Shown here: piece by piece, positions 2,609 to 60,919 of the stretch
Layout of the letters: every line of letters begins with the position of its first letter
Numbering within the stretch: the first letter of the stretch is position 1
NCBI GenBank assembly: GCA_963769885.1
Contig: CAVYNH010000004.1
Location: 140,495 to 204,494 of the forward strand
Reading direction: 5' to 3'
Length of the DNA: 64,000 nt
Origin: Methanobacteriota archaeon
GTDB taxonomy: Archaea > Thermoplasmatota > E2 > DHVEG-1
Translations under genes and position numbers: made by a program
The notes under the pieces: model-generated
Told to the model about the DNA's origin: nothing
Databases searched by the model: none
The model's input: the letters and a program-made list of their open reading frames with translations, nothing else

Positions 2609-2664
2609 GGTGCTATCGCCAGCATTGTTGGCTATCCTATCTCTTTGTGTTATCTGAAAGAAAT

Positions 2665-2678
2665 CTTTATATAATAAT
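2665..2678 (+). promoter_or_regulatory. archaeal TATA-box-like element (ctttatataataat) about 20-30 nt upstream of the ATG at 2696, in the divergent intergenic region
   Basis: An AT-rich TTTATATA motif sits at the typical archaeal spacing for a leaderless or short-leader transcript. Confidence 0.3.
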
Positions 2679-2695
2679 CTTATCGATGTCTAGAT

Positions 2696-3388: not shown

Positions 3389-3401
3389 AACGAGGTTCAC
3401 A

Positions 3402-4700: not shown

Positions 4701-4811
4701 ATACGTTCAAGGAAAAAAATTACCTCCGAAGTGATAACCAATACCCTTCAATGTCGATACTGAAGATCTGTTATCATAAGATATATTAATGTCCAACTCA
4801 CTTATTTTTTA

Positions 4812-8999: not shown

Positions 9000-9800
9000 A
9001 TGGCGAGATATCACCTTTTGAAGAAAAGTATAGCTGTTGGCATTATTAGCCTGTTCATTGGAGGATTAGCGACCTCAAGCGTCACCGTCAGGTGCGTGCA
9101 CGCATCTCAGGAACACACTCTTGTGACTGTGACTTCGGAGGTATGCGGTGCCCCAGGACTTGCCACACATACAGCCCTGATAACGGCACAGCAGTACCAG
9201 GAACTCGAGCAACAACTCGAAGCCATAAAGGAACGGCTAACACGCGGACTCTCGTATCAACAGACCATCGCAAGCATCCAGGAAATCGTGCGTGCGCTCA
9301 AGACCTATCAATTATTGCCACAAGGGGCGTCCATTGACCAAGTCCAACAGGCGATCGCAGGCCCATACGAGAATCCAACAGCGTTTATGGTGAGAGGAAA
9401 GGTAGCCCAGAGGAACGAGTTTTCCAGTAATCAAAGCAATTCCCTTTGTCTCATCAGCGGTACCGTTCAGGACGGGTCTGTCACTGGACCACTGGGGCTT
9501 GCGGGAGCAGCGATTGCGGCGTTAGGATTGATCCTCAAACAGAACCTCACAGCGGCCATCGGATTACTGCTGTTGGGTATAAGTCATTATATCACGACAC
9601 TTTCCCCCGTCTCACTCTTGCAACGAGTGACAATAAAATCAGGCAACATCACATCGGTCGGACTCAACGGTGTACAAATTTTCAATATCAGCAGCGAAAC
9701 TGGCGAAGGGGTGATATCCGGCTTCTCTGGGATTAAAATTACACGAGATGACACAAGCCAGATGAGCCTCCTTGGGTTCGCACTTGGCATCAAAGTATAG
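9000..9800 (+). CDS. membrane-anchored hypothetical protein (paralog of 57259..58107)
   Basis: An N-terminal TM anchor is followed by a conserved block VTVTSEVCGAPG...ITAQQYQELEQQLEAIKERL...YQLLPQGAS, matching VEVTTQACGIQG...LTRQQYQNLQQYL...YGLLPKGMS in the distant paralog. Confidence 0.5.
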   Translation: MARYHLLKKSIAVGIISLFIGGLATSSVTVRCVHASQEHTLVTVTSEVCGAPGLATHTALITAQQYQELEQQLEAIKERLTRGLSYQQTIASIQEIVRALKTYQLLPQGASIDQVQQAIAGPYENPTAFMVRGKVAQRNEFSSNQSNSLCLISGTVQDGSVTGPLGLAGAAIAALGLILKQNLTAAIGLLLLGISHYITTLSPVSLLQRVTIKSGNITSVGLNGVQIFNISSETGEGVISGFSGIKITRDDTSQMSLLGFALGIKV

Positions 9801-10086: not shown

Positions 10087-11940
10087 ATGGCTCATCACGA
10101 CAAATCCCGGATCCTCATTTTATTAACGGCCCTAGTCATGATCAGTGCCTGCAGCGCCCAAGGATCATCACCAAAAGCCTCCAATATGGGTGAAGCCGGA
10201 GGGAAAGTTTTTGACGGGCAGATCCTGTTCTCCCCCTATTATACGACGACCACCTATTTGATCGATAGCAGCGGGACAGTGAATCATACGTGGCCAAGCG
10301 CGTATCGTCCCTTCACGGAGCCCTATTGGCTGGGGAATGGGACCATCCTTCGCCCCATCAGCTCCGGCGGCGGAGGCGTGCAAGAAATCCGCTGGGATGG
10401 GACCCTGGCATGGGACTATCGGTATACCGTCTCCGGGTGCACCTGCCACCATGACATCAAGTACCTCCCGAACGGAAACGTGCTCATGATCGTGTGGGAG
10501 ACAAAAACGAAGAACGAGGCCATTGCCGCCGGTCGGAATCCGGCGACCATCTCAGGGAGCACATTTACCTCCGATAAAATCATCGAGGTGCAGCCGACCG
10601 GCCCGACAAGCGGGACGGTCGTCTGGGAGTGGCACGTCTGGGACCATCTCATCCAGGATTTCGACGCCTCAAAGGCGAATTACGGGGTGGTCGGCGATCA
10701 CCCTGAACTGATTGACGTGAATTTTGGCGACGATTTCGTCGGCGACTGGCTGCATACCAATTCCGTTGATTACGACCCCCAGTTCAATCAACTCCTCATT
10801 GACAGCCATAACTTTGACGAGGTCTGGGTCATCGACCATAACACGACCACGGCGGAGGCCGCGGGCCACAGCGGTGGGCACTACGGGCATGGCGGAGACT
10901 TGCTCTACCGATGGGGAAATCCGCAAGCGTACCGACGGGGCACCTCCAGTGATCAAAAGTTATACTGGCAGCATGACGCCTCATGGATAGAACCTGGGTA
11001 TCCCGGTGCGGGACATGTCCTGGTGTTCAACAACGGCTACAACCGCCCGGGCACGAAATATTCGACCGTGGATGAGTTCGCGCCGCCGATCGATTCTAAC
11101 GGTGTGTATTATCTCGCGCCAGGGTCTTCCTATGGGCCTGCTGATTTCTTCTGGGACTTTACCGCGACTCCGCCCACCTCGCTGTATTCAACCGTGTTCG
11201 GCGGCGCCCTGCGCCTCACGAACGGGAATACGTTGATCTGCGATGGGATCCCGGGGAAGTTCTTGGAGGTGACCCCGGATAAGACCGTGGTCTGGCAGTG
11301 GACGAACCCGTATCCGAGTGCAGGTCAGAACAGCGTGTTCAAGATCGATTATATTCCCCATGATATCCCACCAAGTCCACCCCAAATAACAGGCCCGACG
11401 ACGGGAAAAGTCGGGGTTGCGGCACAGTATAATTTCACGGCCATTGACCCTGACGGGGAGGACATCTTCTACTGCATCGATTGGGGCGACCAGACGACTC
11501 CTACCTGGCTTGGCCCCTACCACTCTGGCCATGAGATACCCATGAATCACACCTGGGCTCAGACAGGGTTGTACTCGATCAGGGCGAAGGCGAAGGATGG
11601 CCACGGGGAAAGCGACTGGTCGGACCCGTTCGTGGTCACTATTATTGGTTCGATGCTCGAAACCAACATCGTGGGAGGCATTGGCGTCAAGGCAGTCATC
11701 GCGAACACGGGGGCATCGGACGCCATCGGTGTGCAATGGAAAATCAACGTTGAAGGCGGTGTCGCTGGGAGTATCAATAAGACGATGACCGGCACAGTGG
11801 ACATCCCGTCGCAACAATCGAAGACGGTGAGGACAGGCGTGTTCTTTGGGTTTGGGCCAATTAGCATAACAGTGATCGTCGATGGCGAGGAAACGACTGC
11901 AGAAGGAGCATATCTATTCGTCTTTTCGACGATAAAATGA
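10087..11940 (+). CDS. secreted lipoprotein-like aryl-sulfotransferase (ASST)-like beta-propeller protein with C-terminal PKD-variant (IDWGD) domain
   Basis: A signal peptide with a Cys precedes propeller-type repeats (HHDIKYLPNGN, WEWHVWDH, LHTNSVDYDP). The C-terminal module is DPDGEDIFYCIDWGDQTT..WLGPYHSG..HTW..GLYSIRAKAKDGHGESDWS. The ASST assignment is tentative. Confidence 0.45.
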   Translation: MAHHDKSRILILLTALVMISACSAQGSSPKASNMGEAGGKVFDGQILFSPYYTTTTYLIDSSGTVNHTWPSAYRPFTEPYWLGNGTILRPISSGGGGVQEIRWDGTLAWDYRYTVSGCTCHHDIKYLPNGNVLMIVWETKTKNEAIAAGRNPATISGSTFTSDKIIEVQPTGPTSGTVVWEWHVWDHLIQDFDASKANYGVVGDHPELIDVNFGDDFVGDWLHTNSVDYDPQFNQLLIDSHNFDEVWVIDHNTTTAEAAGHSGGHYGHGGDLLYRWGNPQAYRRGTSSDQKLYWQHDASWIEPGYPGAGHVLVFNNGYNRPGTKYSTVDEFAPPIDSNGVYYLAPGSSYGPADFFWDFTATPPTSLYSTVFGGALRLTNGNTLICDGIPGKFLEVTPDKTVVWQWTNPYPSAGQNSVFKIDYIPHDIPPSPPQITGPTTGKVGVAAQYNFTAIDPDGEDIFYCIDWGDQTTPTWLGPYHSGHEIPMNHTWAQTGLYSIRAKAKDGHGESDWSDPFVVTIIGSMLETNIVGGIGVKAVIANTGASDAIGVQWKINVEGGVAGSINKTMTGTVDIPSQQSKTVRTGVFFGFGPISITVIVDGEETTAEGAYLFVFSTIK

Positions 11941-22913: not shown

Positions 22914-23829
22914 CCCCACCCCCGCCAGCACATGCGCCAGCCGCAACGGCTCTGGATGTTTCACCCGCGACGTCTTCTTCACGATTTCCACACACGACTC
23001 AAGCGACATCCGATGCCCCGGCGAGACGTACAACGGCCGCGTCGCCGACCCCGAACACACCGCGACACCACGACGCTCCCCATCCACAAACACATCCGTC
23101 CCCCGGACCTCCCCGCAGAGACGACTCTTCGCCACCCCGACCGTCGGCGTATCACAGACGACGCCGGCATGGCTCGCGAACCCACAGCGCGCCGGATGCA
23201 GGATCCCCTGACCATCCAGGAGCACCACAGACGGCGGTGAAGACGCCATCTTCAGCAGCCGCTCCACGAACGGCACCTCACGATACGAGAAATACGTCGG
23301 GATGAACGGAAACCGCGTCGACAACGACACCGTCCGCTCCTCCACCACGGCCCCCGTCTTATAATCCACCGCCACATACGCCCCACACGCCTTCGCAAAC
23401 TCACTCCTTGGATACGCCACGTCGATCCCCGCGACAACCTCCAGCGGCGGGAAATCATCCTCGACCCGCACCCGCTCACCGAGTTTCTGCTGCTCACGCC
23501 GCAGCCGACGCAAGGGAAACTCCGTCGAAAACTCATTGAAGAACACCCGATGAAAATCAACAATCATTCCATCCTGGACCTGCACATTCTCACGCGCAAG
23601 CCGACGCACCTTCTCCTCAAGCCCCAGACCGAACCCCCCGAGCCGACCATCGGAATGCACAACCTTGAAACACGGCATCCCCTCCGGATCCGGGTTCTGG
23701 TTCATCATCCGCCCCACCGCCCGAGACGCCACAATGTCCCCCAACGCCGCGGCCACCGCCCCATACGACGTCACATGACCAGCCGGCACCTGACGCACCA
23801 AATCATACGTATACGCAATCAAATCCATA
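22830..23829 (-). CDS. nfi: fusion protein: alkyltransferase-like (MGMT-fold, PCFK variant of PCHR) N-domain + endonuclease V (Nfi) C-domain
   Basis: The MGMT-like block is YGAVAAALG...MPCFKVVHSDGRLGG. The EndoV motifs are AGIDVAY, LLDGQGILHPARCGFASHAGV and PTVGVAKS. The start is placed at the Met of MDLIAYTY, since the track ORF extends spuriously upstream. Confidence 0.6.
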
Positions 23830-40797: not shown

Positions 40798-41414
40798 AAC
40801 GATTACTCGCCGTCCAAATCGGCATCATCCTCGTCCTCGCCGGAGGCATCCTCTACTCCTCCGGCGTCTACACCGCGGTCCAGGACAACATCGTTGAGGT
40901 TCTCTGCCTCAGCTGCATCAAACTCGAGCCGAAGACCTCCGTAGCCTTCACCTTCCTGACCGCCACCGGCGCCCCACACCCCCTCTTCATCCGCGAGAAC
41001 CTCACGGCCGCCCCCATCATGATTATGTACAGCGAGGACGTCTGCGCCGCCTGCGAAGAGATGTACCCCGTCGTCAAACACATGCTGAACGTCACCTTCG
41101 ACAAAGACGACATGGTCTACACCCACACGACTTTCCAAGGGGAGAATGTCACCTTCTTCTTCATCAACATCGACCACACCACCGCCCAGCTCCGCGACAC
41201 CCGGCCGCTCTACGACAAGGAACACGTCGACGGCCTCCCGATGTTCACCTTCATCACGCTCCGATACGACGAAGGCACCGTCCACCCCTACTACACCAGC
41301 GTCTACGGGACCCTGACTCTTCCGAATTCAGCCGAACGCGAGGCTTTCCTCGCCAACATCCTCACCGACAGCATCCACCTCTACCACGAAAACAGAATCG
41401 GCTACCAGCCATAG
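40794..41414 (+). CDS. membrane-anchored CxxC protein (thiol-disulfide system component?)
   Basis: The ATGA start overlaps the stop of the upstream gene. A TM anchor is followed by CLSC and CAAC motifs. Confidence 0.4.
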   Translation: MKRLLAVQIGIILVLAGGILYSSGVYTAVQDNIVEVLCLSCIKLEPKTSVAFTFLTATGAPHPLFIRENLTAAPIMIMYSEDVCAACEEMYPVVKHMLNVTFDKDDMVYTHTTFQGENVTFFFINIDHTTAQLRDTRPLYDKEHVDGLPMFTFITLRYDEGTVHPYYTSVYGTLTLPNSAEREAFLANILTDSIHLYHENRIGYQP

Positions 41415-41458
41415 AAAAGAGAAAAAGGAAAAAAAGGGGAAAATGAACGCGCTTTCCC

Positions 41459-41623
41459 TTACAACTCGCCGCTTCTGATTTTTTGTCTTAGGATGTCAAA
41501 CTGAGCGCGGGTCAGGGTGCAGATGTTGTTCTTTTCACCGATTATCACGCGGTCTTCGCGCACGTCGACAACCGGGCATTTTGGAGGCGTACATACGCCA
41601 TCGTGGCAGAGAACGACTTTCAT
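41459..41623 (-). CDS. small Cys-rich protein (54 aa), not in ORF track
   Basis: The ORF reads MKVVLCHDGVCTPPKCPVV...RSGEL, and the C-x4-C-x4-C pattern suggests metal binding. Confidence 0.25.
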   Translation of the reverse strand: MKVVLCHDGVCTPPKCPVVDVREDRVIIGEKNNICTLTRAQFDILRQKIRSGEL

Positions 41624-41899
41624 AGTTATCCCCTTACTTATTGGTGTTTATTAAAGCTCTTGAACTTTATAAAGATTATGGTTGTCTCTATCCTAAAACG
41701 CATTATGTTTAATTAAAATCGGGCTTGTTATTGGGTCTTTTCGTTAAACAGACTTAATCTTTTCTTTGCACAGGAATATATGTAAAACGAACATTACGGG
41801 TAAAACGGTGAAAAAAATCCAACACATAAGAACATTATTTCAATCATATACTTTTTAAACAGATTCATCATATGAGATTTTATTGATGAGGGTATTATT

Positions 41900-42505
41900 A
41901 TGAGTGAATATCCATATTGTCAGGCAAGAAACAAAATTAAGCCATTTTTTGAGAAAATACAAAGTATAGGAAAGCCAGATAAAGTAACTGTAAAATGGTT
42001 AACTAGCATTGGTTATAAATCATCCAATGACCGCACGATATTATCAGTTTTAAAATTTATCAATTTTACTGATGAAGCAGGAGTTCCCACCAATAAATGG
42101 CAACAATATAAGAATAAGTCAAAATCAAAAATAGTAATGGCTCAAGGAATTCAAATGGGTTATTCTGAACTATTTAAAATATATCCAGATGCTAATAGCC
42201 AAGGAAGAGTAGAATTAACTAATTTCTTCTCAGAAAAAACAGAAGGCGGAAGTGCGGTAGTAGAAAAAATGGTTAGTACATTTACGGAATTATGCTCCTT
42301 GGCCGATTTCGGTTCGGTTGGAGAAGTATCAACAGAAGACGAAAAGACTACCGATACTGAACAAAAAACAAAAAAGGGAGATACCAGCTATAGTGGAAAA
42401 GGATACATCATCAATATCAATATTCAATTAACTGTGCCGGAGACTACTGATGGTGATGTATACGAAAAATTTTTTGCAGCAATGAAAAAGCATCTTTTCT
42501 CTTGA
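41900..42505 (+). CDS. hypothetical protein in AT-rich island (partner of HEPN gene)
   Basis: A 201 aa ORF at about 33% GC, 6 nt upstream of the next ORF. Confidence 0.4.
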   Translation: MSEYPYCQARNKIKPFFEKIQSIGKPDKVTVKWLTSIGYKSSNDRTILSVLKFINFTDEAGVPTNKWQQYKNKSKSKIVMAQGIQMGYSELFKIYPDANSQGRVELTNFFSEKTEGGSAVVEKMVSTFTELCSLADFGSVGEVSTEDEKTTDTEQKTKKGDTSYSGKGYIININIQLTVPETTDGDVYEKFFAAMKKHLFS

Positions 42506-42511
42506 GCAAAT

Positions 42512-43045
42512 ATGAAATCTTTACAAGAAATTCTCGATAAAACAAACAAGTTTGAAGAAGAAGCACATAGAATTTTTTCTAAACATGAAGGAACAAAATC
42601 AGGAACAGTCACACTTACCCAAACTCAAAAAAGACTAACTTGTTTATCTCTTAAACAAAATGAATTATTACAAGAAGCTATAAAAAGTATAAAAAATGAA
42701 TTATATCGAGGAGCCTATGTTCTTGCCTGGGCAGCGTTTATAGATTTTTTAGAAGAAAAACTTGCATCAGATGGATTGGTCAAAGTCAAACAACATAGAC
42801 CTAATTGGAGTAAGTTTAAAACAATCGAAGAGTTAAGAGAAAACGTTCCCGAATTTCAATTAATTGATGTGGCACACGATGTTAATCTCTTGACAAAAGC
42901 TGAGACTAAAACTATACAGGGTTTACTATCAAAAAGAAATGAATGTGCTCATCCAAGTTCTTATACTCCTCGTTTTGCTGAGAGTCTTGGATACCTTGAC
43001 GAAATATTCAATCGCATTGAACAGATACAAAAAAGAAATATGTGA
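42512..43045 (+). CDS. HEPN-domain protein (Rx4-6H motif RNECAH)
   Basis: The C-terminal LSKRNECAHPSSY matches the HEPN R-x4-H signature in an alpha-helical 177 aa protein. Confidence 0.4.
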   Translation: MKSLQEILDKTNKFEEEAHRIFSKHEGTKSGTVTLTQTQKRLTCLSLKQNELLQEAIKSIKNELYRGAYVLAWAAFIDFLEEKLASDGLVKVKQHRPNWSKFKTIEELRENVPEFQLIDVAHDVNLLTKAETKTIQGLLSKRNECAHPSSYTPRFAESLGYLDEIFNRIEQIQKRNM

Positions 43046-43144
43046 AACTATACAAACAAAAAAAGAATCTCTCTTCTGAGAAGTTTTCTAATTTCTCTAG
43101 AAGATTTAGTAATTCGTCCGTTTATCCATTAATCAAAAAATGTT

Positions 43145-43651
43145 CTATCGTCTAGACCTTCTTGCCCTCCTTGGTCTCCTTTCTGTAACACAACTGCATT
43201 TGGTATATCCTTCTTTCTCTAACAGTTCAATAGCATGAGAGTCTTTAATCCCCACTAATTTCGTCTTTTCGCCTTGATAGTGGCTGCATTTGGATATGTG
43301 AATAATTCTTTTCCCTTCATCAACAAGATATGTTGAAAGTCTTGAGTTTCTTTCTGCTCGAAGAAAAACTGTTGCTGCTAATACAACGAAAAAAAACATT
43401 GCTACAAGCAGGATAGCTGTCTCCGCAATTTTTGTTTCGAGCGGGGTTTGCTCATTTAGAATAGTATTTAATTGACCTCCGATCCAAACTACCATACCAC
43501 CAGCAATACCAGCAATAAATCTCTTTGCAAAATCATGATAGACCTTACGTTCCTGTTCAGCAAATTTACGCAAAGTCAATATGTAGTAAGCAGAAATTGC
43601 TGAAGTAGTTATTAGAAGTATAGCTAACGAGGCTAGCGTTATAATTTCCAT
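43145..43651 (-). CDS. membrane protein with C-terminal Cys/His-containing domain
   Basis: Three TM helices are followed by ISKCSHYQG...KCSCV. Confidence 0.35.
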   Translation of the reverse strand: MEIITLASLAILLITTSAISAYYILTLRKFAEQERKVYHDFAKRFIAGIAGGMVVWIGGQLNTILNEQTPLETKIAETAILLVAMFFFVVLAATVFLRAERNSRLSTYLVDEGKRIIHISKCSHYQGEKTKLVGIKDSHAIELLEKEGYTKCSCVTERRPRRARRSRR

Positions 43652-43926
43652 GCTTCAGGTATTCTATTGAGCTGTAAAATATCTTTCCTTAATTCACAGT
43701 CATACCCAGGCGGAGAGTTGGGTGGCGTGATGGGGTCTAACTTCCCTGCAAGTTGTTCCAACGCCTCAGTCTGAGTCAAAGATATAGAAGGAAGTCATGT
43801 GTAGAAAATTATACCTGGATGGAGATATGGAAATATAGATTATGCTGTTTCTATACAAAATTTTATTATGTTGAATCAAAAACCGACCCTCTTGTAAAGC
43901 AGTTTGGAAGTGGTTTTTCGTCTTTG

Positions 43927-51196: not shown

Positions 51197-52465
51197 ATGA
51201 CCGACCACCCCACCACCAAAGAAATGGAGCTCCTCCGCTTCACCACCGCCGGCAGCGTCGACGACGGCAAAAGCACCCTCATCGGCCGCCTCCTCTACGA
51301 CACCAAAACCATCTTCCAAGACCAGCTCGACAGCCTCCACCGCTTCGCCGTCCAACGCGGTGAAACCATGAACCTCGCCTTGCTCACCGACGGACTGCGA
51401 GCCGAACGCGAACAAGGCATCACCATCGACGTCGCCTACCGCTACTTCTCCACCCCCCACCGCAAATTCATCATCGCCGACACCCCCGGCCACGTCCAGT
51501 ACACCCGCAACATGGTCACCGGCGCCAGCACCGCGAATCTGGCCGTCATCCTCATCGACGCCCGAAACGGCGTCGTCGAACAGACCCACCGCCACCTCTT
51601 CATCGCCAGCCTGCTAGGCATCCCCCACTTCGTCATCTGCATCAACAAAATGGACCTCGTCGACTTCAAAGAAGATACCTACGAAGAAATCAAAGACGAC
51701 CTCAAAGGCTTCACCGCCAAACTCAATATCCCCGACGTCACCTACATCCCCATCAGCGCCCTCCTCGGCGACAACGTCGTCAACACCTCCACACACATGC
51801 CCTGGTACAAAGGACCCACCCTCCTCTACACCCTCGAAAACATCAACATCACCAGCGACGAAAACCTCGTCGACTGCCGCTTCCCCGTCCAATACGTCAT
51901 CCGCCCCCGCAACGACACCTACCACGACTACCGCGGCTACGCCGGCAAAATCGCCGGCGGCATCTTCAAGCCCGGCGATACCGTCACCGTCCTGCCCGCC
52001 GACCTCACCACCGAAATCACCAGCATCGAAACCCCCACGGGCCCCGTCACCGAAGCCTTCCCCCCCATGTCCGCCGTCATGCAACTCAAAGACGACATCG
52101 ACATCAGCCGCGGCGACATGATCGTCCGCGAACACAACCAACCAAAAGTCGGCCAGGACATCGACCTCATGGTCTGCTGGATGAATGCAACCCCGCTGCA
52201 GCCCATGAAAACCTACATCCTCCGCCACACCACACGAGAAACCAAGGCCATCGTCCGCACCCTCTACTATAAACTCGACATCAACACCCTCCACCGCATC
52301 GAAAACGTCCCCGAACTCGGCCTCAACGAAATCGGACGCATCTCCGTACGCACCGCCCAGCCCCTCCTTTACGACAGCTACCGCCGCAACCGCGTCACCG
52401 GCAGCCTCATCCTCATCGACGAACGCACCAACGAAACCGTCGGGGCAGGGATGATCCGTGACTAA
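51197..52465 (+). CDS. cysN: sulfate adenylyltransferase subunit 1 (GTPase)
   Basis: The G1 motif GSVDDGKSTLIGRLL, DTPGH and NKMD are present. Confidence 0.8.
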   Translation: MTDHPTTKEMELLRFTTAGSVDDGKSTLIGRLLYDTKTIFQDQLDSLHRFAVQRGETMNLALLTDGLRAEREQGITIDVAYRYFSTPHRKFIIADTPGHVQYTRNMVTGASTANLAVILIDARNGVVEQTHRHLFIASLLGIPHFVICINKMDLVDFKEDTYEEIKDDLKGFTAKLNIPDVTYIPISALLGDNVVNTSTHMPWYKGPTLLYTLENINITSDENLVDCRFPVQYVIRPRNDTYHDYRGYAGKIAGGIFKPGDTVTVLPADLTTEITSIETPTGPVTEAFPPMSAVMQLKDDIDISRGDMIVREHNQPKVGQDIDLMVCWMNATPLQPMKTYILRHTTRETKAIVRTLYYKLDINTLHRIENVPELGLNEIGRISVRTAQPLLYDSYRRNRVTGSLILIDERTNETVGAGMIRD

Positions 52466-52997
52466 ACACCCATCACGCGGCGTCACCGTCTGGTTCACCG
52501 GACTGCCCTGCAGTGGCAAGACCACCGTCGCCGACCACGTCGCCGACCGTCTCAAAATCCAAGGCTACCCCATCGAACGACTCGACGGCGACATCGTCCG
52601 TAAAGACCTCACCAAAGACCTCGGATTCTCCAGACAAGACCGCGACGAAAACCTCAATCGCGTCACCGCCCTCGCCGCCAGTCTCACCACCCAAGGCAAA
52701 ATCGTCCTCGCCACCTTCGTCTCCCCCTACCGCGACCGCCGCGAAAAAAGCCGCGCCGCCATCCCCGACTTCCTCGAAATCTACGCCCGCTGCCCCATCG
52801 AAGTCTGCATCCAGCGCGACGTCAAAGGCATGTACAAGCAAGCCCTCGCCGGCCGCCTCAAAGGCTTCACCGGCATCGACAACCCCTACGAAGAACCACA
52901 ACAACCCGACCTCATCCTCGACACCGACAAAGAAACCATCCAAGAAAGCACCGAAAAAGTCATCGCCCTCCTTAAAACCAAAGGCTACCTCAAGTAG
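52458..52997 (+). CDS. cysC: adenylyl-sulfate (APS) kinase
   Basis: The P-loop GLPCSGKTT is present. Length is about 179 aa. Confidence 0.75.
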   Translation: MTKHPSRGVTVWFTGLPCSGKTTVADHVADRLKIQGYPIERLDGDIVRKDLTKDLGFSRQDRDENLNRVTALAASLTTQGKIVLATFVSPYRDRREKSRAAIPDFLEIYARCPIEVCIQRDVKGMYKQALAGRLKGFTGIDNPYEEPQQPDLILDTDKETIQESTEKVIALLKTKGYLK

Positions 52998-54011: not shown

Positions 54012-54578
54012 TTAATCGAAATCGTCCCGTTCCGGGTACTGCCCCAGGAGGTAGATCCCGTTATCCAGGGAAATCGAAAACGGCGTTTCAACCAGATCCT
54101 CAGTCCCGATGTTCGTGACCCTGGCCACCGGACCGATGCCGCCGGTAATCTCAATCGAGACCGGGCTTGCCAGGATGATGGTGAAACTCGCGTTCTTCGG
54201 AAACTCCACATTGCCCGCCTTGTCATCAGAATAATACGTCACCGTGTGCAGACCATTCCCCGAGACAATGAACTGCCCCCCATACACCGAGAAATTCCCA
54301 GAATCAATCTGATAATACGTGGCATTGACCCCGGACAGATCATCCGAGGCGTTCAATAACACCGTCACATTACTGATATAGTTCTGCCCCTGCATGATAC
54401 CTTGGAGAACACAGGTCGTGACCGGTGGGGTCGTATCGTTCCCGCTGAGACGTGCACCGCCCCCTATTTGTGATGGTGGGGATGGGGTAGCGGCCATCGA
54501 CCAGCCCGAAAGGCTAGCCACGAGAAAACAAAGTAGGATGAAAGTGCGTAGTGGCATAGTCTTCATTAGACTCCCCAC
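54012..54578 (-). CDS. secreted OmpL47-type/Ig-like domain protein (distant paralog)
   Basis: Signal peptide. Motifs DTTPPVTT and YYQIDSGNFSVYGGQFIVSGNGLHTVTYYSDDKAGNVE. Confidence 0.45.
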   Translation of the reverse strand: MGSLMKTMPLRTFILLCFLVASLSGWSMAATPSPPSQIGGGARLSGNDTTPPVTTCVLQGIMQGQNYISNVTVLLNASDDLSGVNATYYQIDSGNFSVYGGQFIVSGNGLHTVTYYSDDKAGNVEFPKNASFTIILASPVSIEITGGIGPVARVTNIGTEDLVETPFSISLDNGIYLLGQYPERDDFD

Positions 54579-54736
54579 GTATCTATACCAGAGGGAATTA
54601 ATAAGGTTTCTCCTTCAAGTCTTACCAGAACAACCGTTACACACCATGCAGTGTAGTGAAGGCCAGAGACTGTGCTGACTGAGACGTTTCTCCCGTAAAC
54701 GCGCGTTTCCAGGGTCAAAAGAGGGGCACCATCTCG

Positions 54737-56896
54737 TCATTGAAGAATCTGCACTCGGAAATGCCATAGAATCCCGATATGGTCCAGGAGCCAGTGTAAT
54801 AGAGGAAACACGGGTCGTTCGACGATGAACGGCATCCGGACATGGAGGCTCCCCCAGTCGCTTTCGACGCCGTACACATCCCGGGCTTTGCATCTAATCG
54901 TATAGGCACCACGTTTCGCCCAGGTATGGGCGATGGTTTGGATCTGCCCAGAAGGAAATGGTCCGATCCAGCCACTCGTAGTATTGTCTCCCCAGTCGAT
55001 GAAATAGGAGAGGGTATCGTTGTTTGAATCGGTTGCGACCACCGTATAGTTGTAAGACCTGCCTGGTTTTCCGGTCGCGGGCCCGTCAATGGTTGGGGTC
55101 GTTGGTGGGATGTTGTCTCCGGCAATGAACGCCCAGGTGGAGTCGCAGGCGATGATACCCACGCCGTCAGTGACCGTGAGGGTGACGGTGTAGTTTCCGG
55201 CGGTGTGGTAGGTGTGGGTGGGGTTCTGCTCGTCAGATGTCGCGCCGTCGCCGAAGGTCCAGTGGTACTGATAGGGTGGTGTGCCGTTCTCGGCTGATCC
55301 GGTGAAGTGGAGGGGGGTTTCGACGGCGCCATGATAGGGGCCGTGGGCGTGGGCGATGCAGCCGCCGATGATCGTGAAGTCTGCGGGGGAGATGGCGGTG
55401 GCGCTGGTGGTGCTGGTGGTGACCGTGATTTTGACGCGGCAGTGGGTTGATCCGGTGCCAGCGACGAGCCATTGGTAGCAGCCGTTGTCTAGCAGATCCG
55501 TGGCAATGGGATACCAGGGTCCTGAAGGACCAGTGAGGGAATAGAAGAGGTCGACTGTGGCATCGCCTTGGGCTAGGGGGACGGCGGAAAGCCAACGGAT
55601 GTTGCGGATGGCGTTGCCAGTGAAGGTTTCACCGCCGTAAGGGGATCTGAGGTGGACCGACAATGCGGTCGGCTCTTGCCAAGGGGAGATGGCGCATAGG
55701 ACGTTGTGCGATTGTTCGATGACGAAGATGACGTCTTCGCGGCCGTCGTGGTCGAAGTCGCCGTCGACGCGCAACATGACGCAGTCTCCGGTCATGAAGA
55801 AGGTAGCATCGGCAGACCAGTATCCTGTACCGTAACCGAGGTAGACTTGGGCGACGTTGGTGGTAAAGGTCATGATGTCTAGGTATCCGTCGGCGTTGAG
55901 GTCGCCGCATTGAACGCGGTAGTCTCCGGTTGTCGGGAGGCCGGTGGAGGCTTGGGTCCAGGTGTTATTGTTTTTATGGTAGAGGTAGGCGCGGACGCCT
56001 TGGTTGTCGTAGGAGATGGCGAGGTCGTCGGTGCCGTCGTTATTGAGGTCGCCGTGATCGAGGCCGACGGCGACGGCGGTGGGGAGTCCGTTTTGGCTGA
56101 GGGTGAAGTTGAAGTGGCCGTCGCCGAGGTAGACGTTGGTGTTGTATTTAGTCCCGATGAAGTCCATGTTTCCGTCGGCGTTGATGTCGCAGGTTTTGAG
56201 GTCGTCGTTGGTGTTGTCGATGGTGTTGGTCCATTTGTGGGTCCAGGTGCCGTTGCCGTTGTTTTTGTAGACGTGGTAGCCGTTGCCGTAGCCGAAGGAT
56301 TGGCTGACGAGGTCGAGGAGGCCGTCGTTGTTGAAGTCGGCGAAGTCGGTGGCGCCCATGCCCCAGGTTTCGCCGCCTGTTCCGAGTCCGGTGGCCCAGC
56401 CGGTCCAGTTGATGCCGGTGCCGTCGCCGAGGGCGGCGCCGATGAGGGTGTCGCCGAAGCCGGGTGTTGAGCTGTAGTCGTGGTGGATGCCCCAGGCGAT
56501 GTCGGGGTGGCCGTCAAGGTTGAGGTCGCCGATGGCGCAGCCGCCGTAGCCGAAGTCGCCGGTTTGGTGGATGGTCCAGGTGCCGGTGCCGTCGCCGAGC
56601 CAGGCCATGATGCCGTGTTCTTGGGTGTTGATGTAGGGGTTGCCGTGGTCGCCGACGCTGAGGATGTCGAGGTGGCCGTCTTGGTTGATGTCGGCGAGTT
56701 CGACTTCCATGGGGCCGCCGTCAAGGCTGGGGGTGTTGAGGCCGGTGGATTTGGGGATGAAGGTGAGTTGGTTCGAGGAGGGGCGTGCCCCGGCGTTGGA
56801 TGATCGGGCGGTCCAAGGGGTCAGAGATGTTGAGCAGAGGAGGATTGTTAAGACGCCCGCGAAAAGGATGCGGTGAAGCGGTGTGTGGTGGTTCAA
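54737..56896 (-). CDS. secreted FG-GAP repeat protein with PKD and PKD-variant (IDWGD) C-terminal domains
   Basis: A signal peptide precedes DxNxDGxxD repeats. A canonical PKD follows (WTFGDGATS..YTVTLTVTD), then ATDSNNDTLSYFIDWGDNTTSGWIGPFPSG...IRCKARD. Confidence 0.6.
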   Translation of the reverse strand: MNHHTPLHRILFAGVLTILLCSTSLTPWTARSSNAGARPSSNQLTFIPKSTGLNTPSLDGGPMEVELADINQDGHLDILSVGDHGNPYINTQEHGIMAWLGDGTGTWTIHQTGDFGYGGCAIGDLNLDGHPDIAWGIHHDYSSTPGFGDTLIGAALGDGTGINWTGWATGLGTGGETWGMGATDFADFNNDGLLDLVSQSFGYGNGYHVYKNNGNGTWTHKWTNTIDNTNDDLKTCDINADGNMDFIGTKYNTNVYLGDGHFNFTLSQNGLPTAVAVGLDHGDLNNDGTDDLAISYDNQGVRAYLYHKNNNTWTQASTGLPTTGDYRVQCGDLNADGYLDIMTFTTNVAQVYLGYGTGYWSADATFFMTGDCVMLRVDGDFDHDGREDVIFVIEQSHNVLCAISPWQEPTALSVHLRSPYGGETFTGNAIRNIRWLSAVPLAQGDATVDLFYSLTGPSGPWYPIATDLLDNGCYQWLVAGTGSTHCRVKITVTTSTTSATAISPADFTIIGGCIAHAHGPYHGAVETPLHFTGSAENGTPPYQYHWTFGDGATSDEQNPTHTYHTAGNYTVTLTVTDGVGIIACDSTWAFIAGDNIPPTTPTIDGPATGKPGRSYNYTVVATDSNNDTLSYFIDWGDNTTSGWIGPFPSGQIQTIAHTWAKRGAYTIRCKARDVYGVESDWGSLHVRMPFIVERPVFPLLHWLLDHIGILWHFRVQILQ

Positions 56897-57208
56897 CCTC
56901 TGTTCCCCCGTTCAGATTCATTAGGTGGTGCCGTATTTTAATGTTGTGCTAAGGAGGGGTGGGTTATCCTTGGTTCTTTTGGTGTGGTAGTAGGTGTAAC
57001 CCGAGGAAGTCAGCCTGGTTTTCGTCTGCTCGCAGGGGGAATCCGGGTCGCCGACGCAGCACAGACCGTGCCCCGGATATTCTACCATTAATTTCCTATT
57101 CCCAATCTGTAACTTAAGTAAGTCTCGCTATTCAAAACTATGTTAGAAGGAATTCTATATTATTATATCTGCAAGAAATAGAAATGACGTATGAAGGATG
57201 AAAAAAGC

Positions 57209-57235
57209 GCAGGGGAAGGGATTTGAACCCTTGTT
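57209..57235 (-). other. partial copy of tRNA 3' end (T-arm + acceptor 3' strand; gcgcaggggaagggatttgaaccc)
   Basis: A 22-24 nt identity to the 3' part of the tRNA-Leu at 59533..59617. No 5' half was found. Confidence 0.5.
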
Positions 57236-57258
57236 TATCGGTACATAGGCGATTTTTA

Positions 57259-58107
57259 CTAGGGAACATATGTTGCTGTTGCAAGAGCTTGACCAAGGTA
57301 AAAACTTATTTTATCAAATTGATTAACGGGGAACCAAATCCTGAGTCCTTTAAAACCAATTAGCCAGTTCAAATTATCATTTATTGATTGCAACCCTTTT
57401 AATCCGAAAGACACCCCTCGGTAGCCGGAATTAATTGTTACCACTGTCCACAGTAAAAGAGGGCTAAACAAATTGAAAATCAACGAAGGAATCCCTACGA
57501 CAGCAGACAGTAATAATGGAATAGCCACCAACATTGCAAGATTAAGATTATTAAAATGAAACATCCCATAGGTAAAAAGCATAAAAAGAATTATCATAGG
57601 TAAAGTCAGCAACCCAAATATTACATCATTTCCTGCTAACACCGAATACATGGACAGCAAACAAAAGACATTGCTAAACGCTAAATGAAATTGAGAAAAC
57701 CTAAGAGAGCCCACCAGTTTTTCAACAGCAGGATGAACTTGATCTGCCGTCACCAACTTCTGTGCCTTTTCAACACTCATACCTTTTGGCAATAGACCAT
57801 ACTTATTGAACTCCACGACTGCTTCCTTGAAGATAGGAACCGCTTCTTCCCTGGTTGTCGTCTGGTTCAATCGTGCTTTGAAATCAACAAGATACTGCTG
57901 TAGGTTCTGATACTGTTGCCTGGTGAGTTTCACAGTGGTATCCCCAAATCCCTGGATACCACAGGCTTGAGTAGTCACTTCAACAAGGTCATTAGTTAGT
58001 GATGCTTTGGCCACATTGAAGTTGATGCTTGGTGCGACTGCAACACCAATGAACAAAAGAATGATACCAATTGCAGAACATTTCCCAATCAGAGGATATT
58101 TTTTCAT
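57259..58107 (-). CDS. membrane protein, paralog of 9000..9800
   Basis: The conserved N-terminal block is shared with 9000..9800. A C-terminal multi-TM region is present. GC is low. Confidence 0.5.
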   Translation of the reverse strand: MKKYPLIGKCSAIGIILLFIGVAVAPSINFNVAKASLTNDLVEVTTQACGIQGFGDTTVKLTRQQYQNLQQYLVDFKARLNQTTTREEAVPIFKEAVVEFNKYGLLPKGMSVEKAQKLVTADQVHPAVEKLVGSLRFSQFHLAFSNVFCLLSMYSVLAGNDVIFGLLTLPMIILFMLFTYGMFHFNNLNLAMLVAIPLLLSAVVGIPSLIFNLFSPLLLWTVVTINSGYRGVSFGLKGLQSINDNLNWLIGFKGLRIWFPVNQFDKISFYLGQALATATYVP

Positions 58108-58400
58108 CTATTCTGCCCCATTTGAAAATGAAGAATACTTCTCTATTTAAAATCTCCGTTAACGTGATTTCTCCAGAAATGAACCGGTATTTCGGAGTTC
58201 AAATCATTTTTTTGTATTCTAGAATTCTTCTCCAGTAAAAATAAGAAAAAAGTGCAGGGGAAGTGATACCAACCTCAAGTTTAAATCTCACGGATCCGTG
58301 GGGGGGTACCTGGTTCCCTCCTAGTGGATTGTTCAATATTGGCCTGTTCTTTGGTTTGTTGAGCAAAGCGGGACTGCTCGTCTTAAATCAGCGAAACAAG

Positions 58401-58423
58401 GGACCGAGGGTGATTTGAACCCA
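58401..58423 (-). other. second tRNA-3'-end-like fragment (gggaccgagggtgatttgaaccc)
   Basis: The T-loop signature TTCAAAT plus an acceptor-like 3' strand. No 5' half was found. Confidence 0.35.
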
Positions 58424-58508
58424 TCTCATATATCCGATATAGTAAAACCCAAAACAACCAAATCAGAATGAACTTCAGCCTTAAAAAAACGACAGGCACA
58501 ATAAGAAT

Positions 58509-59291
58509 TTGTTGGAAGTGCAGAACATGAACGAGAATGCGTTGTACGAGGCTATTTTCAAACGAAAATCGGTTAGAGATTATGACCCAACGCCCATTGA
58601 CTCCAAGCCCCTCGAAGAGATTTCAACGAATTTGCAGTCCTTAAAGCCAATGGTGACAGGGATTAAGACAGAGTTCAGGATTATTTCGCCAAATCAAGTA
58701 ACCAGAAAGTTTAGCAACAAAGCGCCCCACTTCATTGCGGCGTTCTCAGAAGCAAAAGACGCTTACAAAGTCAATATTGGGTTTATGCTTCAACAAATGG
58801 ACCTTTATTTCTCGTCGAATGGGTTAGGCAGTTGTTGGTTGGGGATTCCGCAACCGACCAAAGACGTGGTAGATTCTTCAGATCTTGAGTTTATTATTCT
58901 GATGTCATTCGTAAATTCAAAAGAAACACTTCACAGGACGAACGTTTCGGAGTTCAAAAGAAAGCTCCTTTCGGATATTACCAACATCAAAGATGCTGAC
59001 GAGTTGTTAGAACCAGCTCGTCTTGCTCCGTCAGCGGTAAACATGCAGAACTGGTATTTTACTGGCAATAAGAGCGCAATCCATGCCTATTCAAACAGGG
59101 CTGGATTTCCTATTACTTTCGTTGGGGGAAGTTATTATCCTGTCAACATGGGCATTGCTCTTTACCATTTGCAGCTAGCGGGACAGCACTTTGGGTGGAA
59201 AACCAAATTCGTCTTCGACAAGTCAAAAGATAAAAGTCCCCCTAAGAATCTGGATTACGTTGCAACCGTAGAGAGGGCATTTAACCTATAG
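58509..59291 (+). CDS. nitroreductase-family protein
   Basis: The N-terminal LYEAIFKRKSVRDY motif is typical of NAD(P)H nitroreductases. Confidence 0.5.
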   Translation: MLEVQNMNENALYEAIFKRKSVRDYDPTPIDSKPLEEISTNLQSLKPMVTGIKTEFRIISPNQVTRKFSNKAPHFIAAFSEAKDAYKVNIGFMLQQMDLYFSSNGLGSCWLGIPQPTKDVVDSSDLEFIILMSFVNSKETLHRTNVSEFKRKLLSDITNIKDADELLEPARLAPSAVNMQNWYFTGNKSAIHAYSNRAGFPITFVGGSYYPVNMGIALYHLQLAGQHFGWKTKFVFDKSKDKSPPKNLDYVATVERAFNL

Positions 59292-59532
59292 TGAAATGCC
59301 CAGGGCGGGTATTTGATTTTAAGTCATCCAGACAAGAAAAAAGAATCAGAGTGCCGCAGGAGGGGATACTGAGCCGGGTTAAATACCCCCGTCCTATTAT
59401 AGCTGAATCTGTGTGGGTCTGGAGGCAGCTATAGGAGGTTTTTTTCAGACTGAAAGGTTCAAATCTCTTTTTTTAACCACAATAGCATTCATTGTGGTTT
59501 CACTAAGGTTTTCTCCTGTAGAACGGTAAAAG

Positions 59533-59617
59533 TGCAGGGGAAGGGATTTGAACCCCCGAACCTCTACAGGAACAGATCTTGAGTCTGTCGCCGTTGACCG
59601 AGCTTGGCTACCCCTGC
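59533..59617 (-). tRNA. tRNA-Leu (anticodon CAA), type II with long variable arm
   Basis: GCAGGGG...CCCCTGC acceptor. D-arm AGCCAAGCTCGGTCAACGG. Anticodon stem-loop ACAGA-CTCAAGA-TCTGT. Variable arm TCCTGTAGAGGTTC. T-arm GGGGGTTCAAATCCCTTC. Confidence 0.7.
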
Positions 59618-59745
59618 ACTCTCCACCGTCAATCCATCGAACCATAATAAATATTTAGGTAAACACCCACCAGCAGACAAATACAATCAAAAATCCTTTT
59701 AAACCAACAACAAGCTACCATCCCCCAACCAAAACGAGGAGACGG

Positions 59746-60768
59746 GTGAGAACCATCGAAACCAAAACCATCGGAGTACTCTCCAGCGGCGGCGACGCCC
59801 CCGGCATGAACGCCGCCCTCCGCGCCATCGTCAGAACCGCACTCAACTACGGCCACACCCTCTACGGCATCAGACGCGGCTACGAAGGCCTCATCAACGA
59901 CAACCTCGAACCCCTCACCCACTACTCCGTCAGCAACATCATCAAAAACGGCGGCACCATCATCCAAACCGCCCGCAGCCCCGAATTCCTCACCCCACAA
60001 GGACGACAAAAAGCCTACGACACCATTAAAAAACACGGCATCACCAGCCTCATCGTCATCGGCGGCGACGGCAGTTTCCACGGACTCCACGAACTCATCC
60101 TCGAACACGGCATCCAAGGAATCGGCGTCCCCGGCACCATCGACAACAACCTCTATGGCACCGACTACACCATCGGCTTCGACACCGCAGTCAACACCGC
60201 CCTCGACGCCATCGACAAAATCCGCGACACCGCCACCAGCCATAGCAGGCTCTTCATCATCGAAGTCATGGGGCACACCTCCGGTTACATCGCCCTCTAC
60301 ACCGGCGTCGGCGGCGGTGCTGAGGAAATCGTCCTCCCCGAATCCCCCGTTGACCTCAGCAAAATCTGGGCACGCCTCAACATGGGACGCGCCCACGGCA
60401 AAAAAAGCAGCATCGTCGTCGTCGCCGAGGGAGAACGCACCGGCGGCGCCGCAGCCGTCAAAGCCCACATCGAAAAATACAGCGACTGGGAAGTCAAAGT
60501 CAGCATCCTGGGCCACATCCAACGCGGCGGCGACCCCACCGCCTTCGACCGCCTCCTCGCCAGCAGACTCGGCTACGAGGCAGTCTACGCCATCATGCGC
60601 AACGAGACCGACAAAATGGTCGGCATCATCGATAAAACCGTCACTCTCACCCCACTGGCCGATACCTGGACGAAGAAAAAAGAACTCGACCTCTCCTACC
60701 TCTCCATGAATGACATGCTTTCTTCGTACCATGAACCGCTTCAACAGACGAGCCGAATCATGATATAG
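59746..60768 (+). CDS. pfkA: 6-phosphofructokinase (PfkA family)
   Basis: Motifs GVLSSGGDAPGMNAALRA, GGDGS and MGR are present. Confidence 0.8.
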   Translation: MRTIETKTIGVLSSGGDAPGMNAALRAIVRTALNYGHTLYGIRRGYEGLINDNLEPLTHYSVSNIIKNGGTIIQTARSPEFLTPQGRQKAYDTIKKHGITSLIVIGGDGSFHGLHELILEHGIQGIGVPGTIDNNLYGTDYTIGFDTAVNTALDAIDKIRDTATSHSRLFIIEVMGHTSGYIALYTGVGGGAEEIVLPESPVDLSKIWARLNMGRAHGKKSSIVVVAEGERTGGAAAVKAHIEKYSDWEVKVSILGHIQRGGDPTAFDRLLASRLGYEAVYAIMRNETDKMVGIIDKTVTLTPLADTWTKKKELDLSYLSMNDMLSSYHEPLQQTSRIMI

Positions 60769-60919
60769 GCGAGCAGGCGCGGGCACCCATGGCGGACCAA
60801 GTGAACATAGAGGGCGTCCCGATACAGCTTCTCAACCAGTTTCTTTGCCATAAGAAGCACAGTGCCCCCAGGACTATAAATATCCTCGAAATACGTTCGG
60901 CCACAACCAAACAAACCCA

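Follow-up and report, generated by a model that had tools for sequence, protein, structure and literature searches.

The cis-mobilisable elements (CIMEs) of Streptococcus integrative and conjugative elements (ICEs) are flanked by attachment (att) sites and lack an integrase, and their mobilisation in trans has been shown experimentally. Islands in tRNA and tmRNA genes are recognised by a regenerated target gene together with a displaced fragment of it (the Islander definition, PMC4383910), the tycheposons of Prochlorococcus are cargo-carrying islands anchored at tRNA genes (bioRxiv 10.1101/2020.12.28.424599), and in archaea both tandem integration and loss of the integrase are known (PMC8371274). 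Here we analyse a stretch of 64,000 nucleotides of archaeal DNA (the window, 64 kb in all), in which a first-pass annotation, made from the letters alone, had drawn attention to a tRNA-Leu(CAA) gene followed in low-GC DNA by partial copies of its 3' end, and had read these copies as probable integration scars, left by decayed elements or at a recombination hotspot. Our analysis upholds that reading, and the three checks suggested along with it all turned out in its favour: with a probability of roughly 85%, the region from 57.2 to 59.5 kb is a genomic islet that arose by serial site-specific recombination at the 3' end of tRNA-Leu(CAA). Related genomes swap the content of the site at or close to the core sequence that the tRNA gene shares with the copies, and in one related locus (L198) the same core bounds an integrase-bearing element. 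The principle is known, and the locus alone would be an ordinary small tRNA islet. Cassette-like turnover at tRNA-Leu is apparently undescribed; a literature search of incomplete coverage returned no account of tRNA-Leu-anchored arrays, or of the integrase and arm family set out below, in Thermoplasmata-type archaea.

The islet resembles an Islander-type island in that it extends from an intact tRNA gene to a displaced 3' fragment, its content is foreign and variable, new arrivals would push older ones outward, and a tyrosine integrase is linked to the core in related loci. The tRNA boundary, the 3' repeat and the foreign, variable content are thus all found in the window, and an internal tyrosine integrase is not. 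The islet differs from such islands in measuring only 2.3 kb, in lacking an integrase and in holding a single gene per unit, and its relatives differ in carrying up to seven units at a median spacing of about 0.8 kb. It is best read as two units: cassette A (58264-59531), comprising a proximal arm, a nitroreductase gene, the scar of a foreign tRNA and a distal arm, and cassette B (57203-58263), comprising a proximal arm, a membrane-protein gene, a decayed arm of the kind that we call class A, and a core. As in CIMEs, cargo without a recombinase is bounded by att sites and stands in tandem at a tRNA-type site that integrase-bearing relatives use, cassette A lying between the tRNA core and copy 2 and cassette B between copy 2 and copy 1, neither with a recombinase gene. 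CIMEs, in contrast, are bacterial, much larger and seldom number more than one or two per site, and whereas their mobilisation in trans has been shown by experiment, that of the archaeal units is predicted from sequence.

The anchor of the island, on its attL side, is the intact type II tRNA-Leu(CAA) gene with its long variable arm (59533-59617, minus strand), which the first-pass annotation had placed correctly and which is identified both by ARAGORN, at 59532-59617, and by Rfam (RF00005, 52.2 bits, E=1.8e-9). It is the sole tRNA that ARAGORN finds in the window, with or without the search for introns, and there is no further Rfam tRNA match at E≤1 in 56000-60500. The att core (59528-59555, minus strand), delimited by a 28-nt pattern search and as repeat family D2, runs from the T-arm through the 3' acceptor strand and the discriminator into the T-rich trailer, of which it takes in about 5 nt, and reads AAAAGTGCAGGGGAAGGGATTTGAACCC on the plus strand. 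Distal att copy 1 (57203-57230, minus strand) matches the tRNA 3' end and trailer at 27 of 28 positions once the oligo-A flank is counted, and its discriminator position has gone from A to G; the 22-nt stretch GCAGGGGAAGGGATTTGAACCC is exact at 57209-57230, and shuffled sequences give an expectation of 0 matches. The exact repeat of 22-24 nt first reported at 57209-57235 is therefore real over 22 nt, and ends at 57230, about 5 nt earlier than had been given. Internal att copy 2 and its arm (58248-58326, minus strand), found by pattern and repeat searches, had been described as a weaker copy of 13 nt near 58251; the copy exists and is stronger than that, being identical at 16 of 16 positions in 58248-58263 (13 nt of tRNA and 3-4 nt of trailer; 0.02 expected by chance), with 72% identity over 39 nt. 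Beyond this block, 58264-58275 is a diverged T-arm, and identity drops abruptly from 16/16 to about 60%. Both copies are direct repeats in the orientation of the tRNA-Leu gene, and the T-loop 10-mer GATTTGAACC occurs four times in the 64 kb, always within 57.2-59.6 kb, where 0.4 occurrences would be expected in the whole window.

A second fragment, GGGACCGAGGGTGATTTGAACCC, read from the sequence at 58400-58422 on the minus strand (one position from where it was first noted), is the T-arm and acceptor strand of a different tRNA, the acceptor strand being unlike that of tRNA-Leu, and is preceded by an imperfect palindrome at 58428-58441. No tRNA matching it is present in any locus that we fetched, nor does any viral contig match it. 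The fragment is probably an older att scar that was brought along with the nitroreductase module.

Partial tRNA copies of this kind might instead be functional RNA genes, either the 3' halves of tRNAs that are split or interrupted by an intron, or tRNA-like signals for processing that punctuate transcripts; an oligo-T tract after a perfect T-arm and acceptor strand would fit such a role, and the AT-rich arms beside them could hold promoters. The first-pass annotation had itself named overlooked functional tRNAs as the case that would overturn it. However, ARAGORN with introns allowed returns the one tRNA, a sequence search finds no 5' half (no GCAGGGGTAGCC-like sequence) near the partial copies in the window, and these copies, in the window and in four array loci, give no Rfam tRNA match at E≤1. 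Split or intron-containing tRNAs are thereby rejected. The units of arm class A, moreover, have no conserved fold, and up to seven identical 3' pieces in one array would be redundant, so that we consider a functional RNA very improbable.

The low GC content noted for the intervening DNA is borne out: between the FG-GAP/PKD gene at 54737-56896 and the tRNA it is 41.5%, against about 60% in both neighbouring genes, and the profile runs at 37-45% over 57000-59600 and at 57-66% in the flanks. The GC content at third codon positions (GC3) is 0.38 in the membrane-protein gene and 0.50 in the nitroreductase gene, compared with 0.75-0.9 in native genes. The low-GC stretch measures about 2.6 kb and the islet proper, from 57.2 to 59.5 kb, about 2.3 kb; its two genes lie on opposite strands. 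A misjoining of contigs through the repeated 22-28-mers could in principle produce such a picture, and contig L001, from the independent Logan assembly, does end exactly at the repeat, at 59554, which shows that assemblers break at the tRNA-Leu repeat. The same contig, however, is 100% identical to 54041-59554 of the window and crosses all internal junctions together with both partial copies; typical final k-mers are longer than the repeat, and the same architecture recurs in dozens of independent samples. An assembly artefact is scarcely credible on these grounds.

For comparison we used metagenomic contigs chosen by an exact match to the 22-mer core, at least 120 stretches in all, which are referred to below by number where they need to be told apart. 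The order tRNA-Leu(CAA)-PFK-TruA (PFK, phosphofructokinase) is common to the window and to L002, L180 and L097, and the FG-GAP/PKD gene is also found in L002 and L180. The flanking genes of L002 are 74-77% identical to the window at the nucleotide level, the PFK genes of L180 and L097 88-89%, and the tRNA-Leu gene of L002 differs from that of the window by one base, in the variable arm; the outer flank of copy 1, AGGATGAAAAAAG, matches the flank beside the full tRNA of L002. As the comparison with relatives proposed at the outset would predict for an insertion site, the three carry different low-GC DNA there: the distance from the tRNA to the next shared sequence is 3.2 kb in L002, 1.2 kb in L180 and 5.2 kb in L097, and the inserts, of about 40-49% GC, are unrelated to the DNA of the window and contain partial tRNA-Leu copies of their own.

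Closer pairs place the exchange at the core or close to it. From a point 9 nt ahead of the tRNA core, L097 and L180 share 4.3 kb at 94.9% identity, and they match again, at 90.7%, over the outermost partial copy and what follows it; between these shared points L097 has 5.2 kb in four units and L180 a single, unrelated unit of 0.53 kb. The 98.6% identity of L200 and L095 extends to the final base of the 22-nt core, after which they are unrelated, L185 and L198 are 94.9% identical through the core and about 100 nt of arm before they diverge, and L100 and L198, 94% identical beyond the terminal core, hold a 1.2-kb unit and an 8.7-kb element, respectively, at the site. Between contigs that are 94-99% identical, then, content is replaced at the core or within about 100 nt of it. 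The 5' side of the tRNA is variable too: a gene for a 314-aa secreted protein stands between the tRNA-Leu 5' end and PFK in L180 (2189-3133) and L097 (5672-6616), and is missing from the window, where only 129 nt separate tRNA and PFK.

The link between the core and an integrase comes from L198, in which two 22-nt cores bound an element of 8.7 kb. Its tyrosine recombinase, of 314 aa, matches PF00589 (E=8e-22) and has SAM-like N-terminal domains. A 186-aa open reading frame (ORF) separates the recombinase gene from the core, and the element also has a gene for a serine resolvase and a 463-aa ORF without a Pfam match. The integrase/186-aa pair, at 55-58% identity, also abuts the tRNA-Leu core in L184, L112, L123 and L108. 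The L198 recombinase scores 142.6 bits against the NCBIfam XerA model, under its cutoff of 220 bits, and its nearest solved structures are XerD and XerA; the att-linked recombinase is thus Xer-like. Its closest annotated relative is the integrase of the Methanosarcina acetivorans plasmid pC2A (NC_002097.1), at 39.9% identity over 99% of the length (E=8e-62), likewise Xer-like; the plasmid, unlike the L198 element, contains no tRNA-like core, box or palindrome, and we know of no target for its integrase. On this evidence the core serves as att site for a family of plasmid-like elements that encode an integrase, and it is this link, beyond analogy alone, on which the interpretation of the partial copies as scars rests.

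In L108 (7506-10865) two integrase/186-aa modules face each other across tRNA-His(GTG) and tRNA-Leu(CAG), each tRNA being abutted by one of them. The two integrases are about 40% identical to each other, which suggests sister enzymes with different tRNA targets. Distant tyrosine-recombinase genes also lie 5' of tRNA-Leu in L172 (about 2215-3039, beyond an adjacent tRNA-Gly), L147 (43-935, frameshifted) and L181 (3522-4685). An integron-like platform integrase 5' of the tRNA was rejected as a general feature, since these are only three loci among the matches listed, their recombinases are mutually distant, and the window has PFK in that position.

General homologous recombination or gene conversion between tRNA-like repeats might shuffle the DNA with no site-specific recombinase at all. 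Direct repeats together with arms come to at least 75 nt, enough for some exchange, and an exchange of modules between tandem archaeal elements has been proposed (PMC8371274). Such a process would leave unexplained how the repeats arose, why partial copies stand on the 3' side of the tRNA in 11 of the 11 listed loci that have both a full tRNA-Leu gene and partial copies, and why the integrase module lies directly against the core in five loci, and the breakpoint between L200 and L095 falls exactly at the end of the 22-nt core. We regard it as unlikely.

The serial insertion that we favour would proceed by steps that are standard tyrosine-recombinase logic. A circular incoming DNA would carry an attP in which the final 22-28 nt of the tRNA are repeated (T-arm, acceptor strand and trailer), and strand exchange within the block of identity would insert it, the incoming copy completing the tRNA gene while the former 3' end is displaced to the far side of the insert. 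In the window, an older event would have brought in cassette B with the membrane-protein gene, and a younger one cassette A with the nitroreductase gene and the older scar of a different tRNA, the order following from the standard model, in which the unit nearest the tRNA is the latest arrival; both cassettes would derive from low-GC relatives. Because copy 2 turns abruptly from 16/16 identity to a diverged T-arm, we suggest that the crossover of cassette A lay inside CTTCCCCTGCAC(T)n, within the last 16 nt or so. The recombinase may have been a Xer-like integrase like that of the 8.7-kb elements, acting in trans, or it may have belonged to an integrase module that was lost after insertion.

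Several observations weigh against this reading. As the first-pass annotation had stated, there is no integrase: no tyrosine or serine recombinase is encoded in the 64-kb window that could serve as the enzyme for this genome, and none able to act in trans is present in the window's other low-GC islets. Remnants are lacking in the islet as well, both in six-frame Pfam searches of 56897-59532 at E≤5 and in searches with tblastn and with a profile hidden Markov model (HMM) built from six att-linked integrases, whose best match in the window (E=0.14, at 22914-23237) is unrelated; a provirus of the SSV type, with its int(N) and int(C) halves, was rejected on the same six-frame search, which gave no integrase-related match. 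Copy 2 has 16 exact bases only, and the part played by an integrase family of the L198 type is putative. Circular or excised forms were not seen among the contigs, which show no terminal overlaps and whose paired cores have differing flanks, and a scan of viral contigs for the 22-nt core, for the foreign fragment and for a palindrome with a core found nothing, and hence no free attP and no virus that could be linked to the site. Finally, selection by an exact 22-mer biases the frequencies given here, and some contigs could be chimeric at the repeats.

Among the 120 loci listed, 57 are plain tRNA-Leu genes (anticodons CAA, CAG, GAG and TAG, some with introns) and about 63 have partial copies. 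With the window and L002 included, 37 of 122 listed loci have two to seven copies in one orientation, giving 65 inter-copy units with a median length of 790 nt (25-75% range, 500-1210), most of them with one or two ORFs. Units recur: unit 2 of L114 and unit 1 of L176 are 89% identical over about 1000 nt, end to end, with different neighbours, and unit 1 of L143 matches unit 2 of L176. Others are nearly empty, their cores being 74-83 nt apart. Profiles of the integrase and its accessory genes, run over 672 kb of core-bearing loci, detect full-length genes only, and no fragments of them inside the 65 units. In 35 cassettes the longest ORF has the orientation of the tRNA, and in 25 the opposite one. 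Genomes bearing the core range from about 31% to 60% GC, and low-GC cassettes are found in hosts of 60% GC; the cargo of the arrays includes membrane and secreted proteins, radical SAM enzymes, small regulators and nitroreductase.

Between closely spaced cores in L163 (2724-2900) and L097 (5363-5470) there is only a trailer, the ACAGGAG box described below and a palindrome; these may be empty units, each a minimal attP. The copy that terminates the array in L100 (about 1972-2030) and in L198 (about 10418-10480) does not belong to a tRNA gene: it has no tRNA 5' half and follows, at about 40 nt, the stop codon of a desulfoferrodoxin-like gene, so that arrays exist also at a tRNA-fragment pseudo-site.

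On the cargo-facing side of the partial copies lie arms of about 50 nt, which fall into a few classes. All arm classes contain a box and a palindrome. The box, CAACAGGAG(T/A)AA, carries ACAGGAG and is separated from the T-arm by about 37-48 nt; an exact match to it is present in 32 of 71 partial units and in none of 71 controls. A perfect palindrome of 8-14 nt (TTACCGGTAA, TACATGTA, TTTAATATTAAA or TTTACTAGTAAA) is found no more than 24 nt from the core in 28 of 71 units, compared with 5 of 71 controls. The trailer side, too, has recurrent flanks, with a second box, ACAGGAGAA, and an inverted T-loop-like sequence. The arm of class A is the integrase-distal end of the L198 element, and the arms are therefore element ends and not host DNA. 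An alignment of 16 class A units shows no conserved fold (RNAalifold, -4.35 kcal/mol, 0 compensatory pairs), and the arms have no Rfam family. A folded, attC-like site or an RNA structure was rejected for this want of covariation and of an Rfam family, and we propose that the arms are putative protein-binding sites in duplex DNA.

Recognisable arms remain in the window, and its partial copies are not bare scars: they keep family-specific, decayed arm sequences. The tRNA-proximal arm of cassette A (59440-59527, minus strand), with inverted repeat I8, has the ACAGGAGAA box at 59511-59519 and the inverted T-loop-like sequence GGTTCAAATCTCTT at 59456-59469, and belongs to a flank class that also stands beside cores in six other loci (L093, L126, L134, L169, L175 and L194). 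The junction between the two cassettes is copy 2 with its arm (58248-58326), which contains the 12-nt palindrome CACGGATCCGTG at 58289-58300 and the box-like sequence CACTAGGAGGGAA at 58314-58326. The tRNA-proximal arm of cassette B (58108-58247, minus strand), with inverted repeats I1 and I14, includes TTTTTACTGGAGAA and, at 58169-58205, an inverted partial unit (ACCGGT and GGAGTTCAAATC); its homology to flanks in five loci is seen over 58085-58267, where identity to the DNA that immediately follows the tRNA-Leu core in L179, L180, L098, L197 and L175 is 70-82%, and the region gives an nhmmer match at E=0.0036. The decayed distal arm of cassette B (57231-57277, minus strand), recognised with the unit profile and by comparison with class A arms, retains, at 5 nt from the core, a trace of the TTACCGGTAA palindrome in the form of TATCGGTAC. 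The unit profile aligns to 57209-57277 (model positions 12-74) with E=1.4e-9 and 34.9 bits, as against 27.3 bits for the tRNA core alone, and reaches 37 nt beyond the core of copy 1 into this arm. Outside copy 1, an AT-rich stretch (57040-57202), defined by composition only, extends to the GC-rich DNA upstream of the FG-GAP/PKD gene; it may be native to this intergenic region or be left over from an older cassette, and its TTTTTTCATCCTTCAT flank resembles flanks in L163 and L002.

The two blocks of the window appear to belong to a widespread class of small cassettes without an integrase, and do not look like random wreckage of large elements. We tentatively propose, at somewhat less than even odds, that such cassettes are an undescribed archaeal system in uncultured sediment archaea of Thermoplasmata type, in which small non-autonomous units are moved in trans. 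Each unit, of 0.4-2 kb, would have a core from the tRNA-Leu 3' end, an ACAGGAG box and a palindrome of the TTACCGGTAA, TACATGTA or TTAATATTAA type, and a Xer-like integrase of the pC2A type would, in trans, insert and excise units singly at tRNA-Leu, giving hypervariable arrays of up to seven or more. The resulting arrays would be akin to an integron or to a tycheposon island, with the tail of a tRNA for a recombination site and with cassettes that promote their own expression.

The same blocks could be what is left of two full-size elements of about 9 kb, like that of L198, that suffered internal deletions and by chance retained one gene each, with no mobilisation in trans. Loss of the integrase after integration is documented for archaeal elements (PMC8371274), the arms in the window are decayed, and cassette B is without the usual NosD/beta-helix gene, as truncation would leave it. 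This is a serious possibility, clearly short of even odds. Against it, the 65 cassettes, in 672 kb, hold no fragments of integrase or accessory genes, their sizes are tight (the median of 790 nt given above) in arrays of up to seven units, one cassette recurs end to end in different arrays (L114 unit 2 and L176 unit 1), and near-empty units occur at a spacing of 74-83 nt. The absence of fragments, the tight sizes, the recurrence and the near-empty units favour mobile units. We stress that such mobility is unproven: no circles were seen, ORF orientation is mixed, and cassette B looks truncated beside the usual two-gene arrangement.

The tycheposons are a close parallel, as they integrate by tyrosine recombinase at a few tRNA genes, leave several partial tRNAs and carry plug-in cargo. 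They belong to another domain of life, presumably with a different integrase clade; the archaeal units are far smaller, mostly lack hallmark genes and have arms with an ACAGGAG box and a palindrome of 8-14 nt. Integrons are reportedly present in archaeal metagenome-assembled genomes (MAGs), according to work by Ghaly and co-workers from 2022. They, too, are arrays in which most cassettes hold a single gene and every cassette closes with a copy of the recombination site, and their arrays, like those described here, differ wholly between close relatives and share identical cassettes across arrays. Here, by contrast, no platform integrase stands by the array, and the 3' end of a tRNA takes the place of the folded attC. 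The mixed orientation of the ORFs (35 as against 25) means that the cassettes must carry their own promoters. Lacking an adjacent intI and an attC-like hairpin, and with cassettes that are not co-oriented, the locus was rejected as an integron.

Both genes of the islet had been recognised from the sequence, one as a nitroreductase and the other as a paralog of a gene 48 kb away, and both assignments hold. The cargo of cassette A (58527-59291, plus strand, with an alternative TTG start at 58509) is a nitroreductase of the TM1586 type (PF14512, E=2.7e-44). It is 70-81% identical to more than 100 clusters, part of them labelled Nanoarchaeia or Bathyarchaeia, and has 77-80% nucleotide identity, over the ORF only, to copies in genomes of 42-45% GC. 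One relative lies 350 nt from the 3' end of a tRNA-Ser(GCT). Another, 81% identical, is found in L212 between two direct, partial tRNA-Arg-like 3' halves (5640-5690 and 8277-8330). These halves read ACCTCCTAAGTTGGnGGTCGAGGGTTCAAATC, with CCT in the anticodon loop; they also enclose PIN/RHH toxin-antitoxin genes, and a terminase large-subunit gene adjoins. L212 is an independent islet bounded by tRNA fragments, with the same cargo in another archaeon. The nitroreductase gene is a recurrent passenger of tRNA-targeting elements, which would explain why a foreign tRNA scar travels with it.

The cargo of cassette B (57259-58107, minus strand) is a membrane protein of 282 aa that has a signal or anchor at its N-terminus and is hydrophobic in its C-terminal half, and for which there is no Pfam or NCBIfam family. 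Its paralog in the window lies at 9000-9800 on the plus strand, in DNA of GC 0.50 (tblastn, 32% identity, E=5e-19). The family comprises more than 950 homologous clusters from uncultured archaea labelled Thermoplasmata; the closest homologs (77-82%) are on contigs of 39-47% GC, usually after a NosD/beta-helix gene, and homologs adjoin the same repeats in L198, L163, L138 and L199. Across the family, as in the paralog at 9000-9800 and in L086 and L090, a conserved N-terminal region of about 120 aa is joined to a variable hydrophobic C-terminal half, and in most genomes the gene stands directly 3' of one for a secreted NosD/beta-helix protein.

The genes around the islet include ATP-PFK, TruA/Pus, NMD3, an HhH-GPD glycosylase and many secreted FG-GAP/PKD proteins; the nearest PFK among genome records, 89% identical, is from a sediment MAG labelled "Euryarchaeota archaeon". 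Taken with the Thermoplasmata labels on homologs of the membrane protein, this assigns the window to an uncultured euryarchaeon of Thermoplasmata type. Two further low-GC regions were observed in the window. The lowest, at 41300-43900 (33-37% GC, GC3 0.18-0.28), has no flanking direct repeats and no tRNA fragment. It encodes a DUF5343 protein (41900-42505; PF17278, E=7e-41), an adjoining protein of 177 aa that weakly matches RiboL-PSP-HEPN (42512-43045) and, at 43145-43651, a small membrane protein, a layout that looks like a two-gene module of defence or toxin type. The other, a block of 42-48% GC at 192-5873, contains genes for two radical SAM/SPASM proteins, at 192-1460 on the minus strand and at 3402-4700 on the plus strand, along with a membrane protein of 230 aa and an FAD-dependent oxidoreductase (4812-5873), and is a possible foreign cluster for peptide modification. 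In native genes the coding strand is strongly rich in C and A, with GC skew down to -0.4 to -0.58, which gives rise to long stop-free antisense ORFs of 300-430 aa, as opposite PFK and a CysN-like GTPase (59629-60786 and 51614-52555, both minus strand), and ORF lists for this genome therefore need care.

Partial copies of the kind described here can mislead the annotation of tRNA genes, and assemblies break at the tRNA-Leu core. In many uncultured sediment archaea, the last 22 nt of tRNA-Leu are a shared docking site through which single genes pass, in lineages for which mobile elements and the paths that genes take have hardly been characterised. If the units are indeed mobilised in trans, these archaea would have a simple system of cassette exchange, made up of a Xer-like recombinase and the tail of a tRNA, and the core with its arm would be a defined substrate for biochemical tests.

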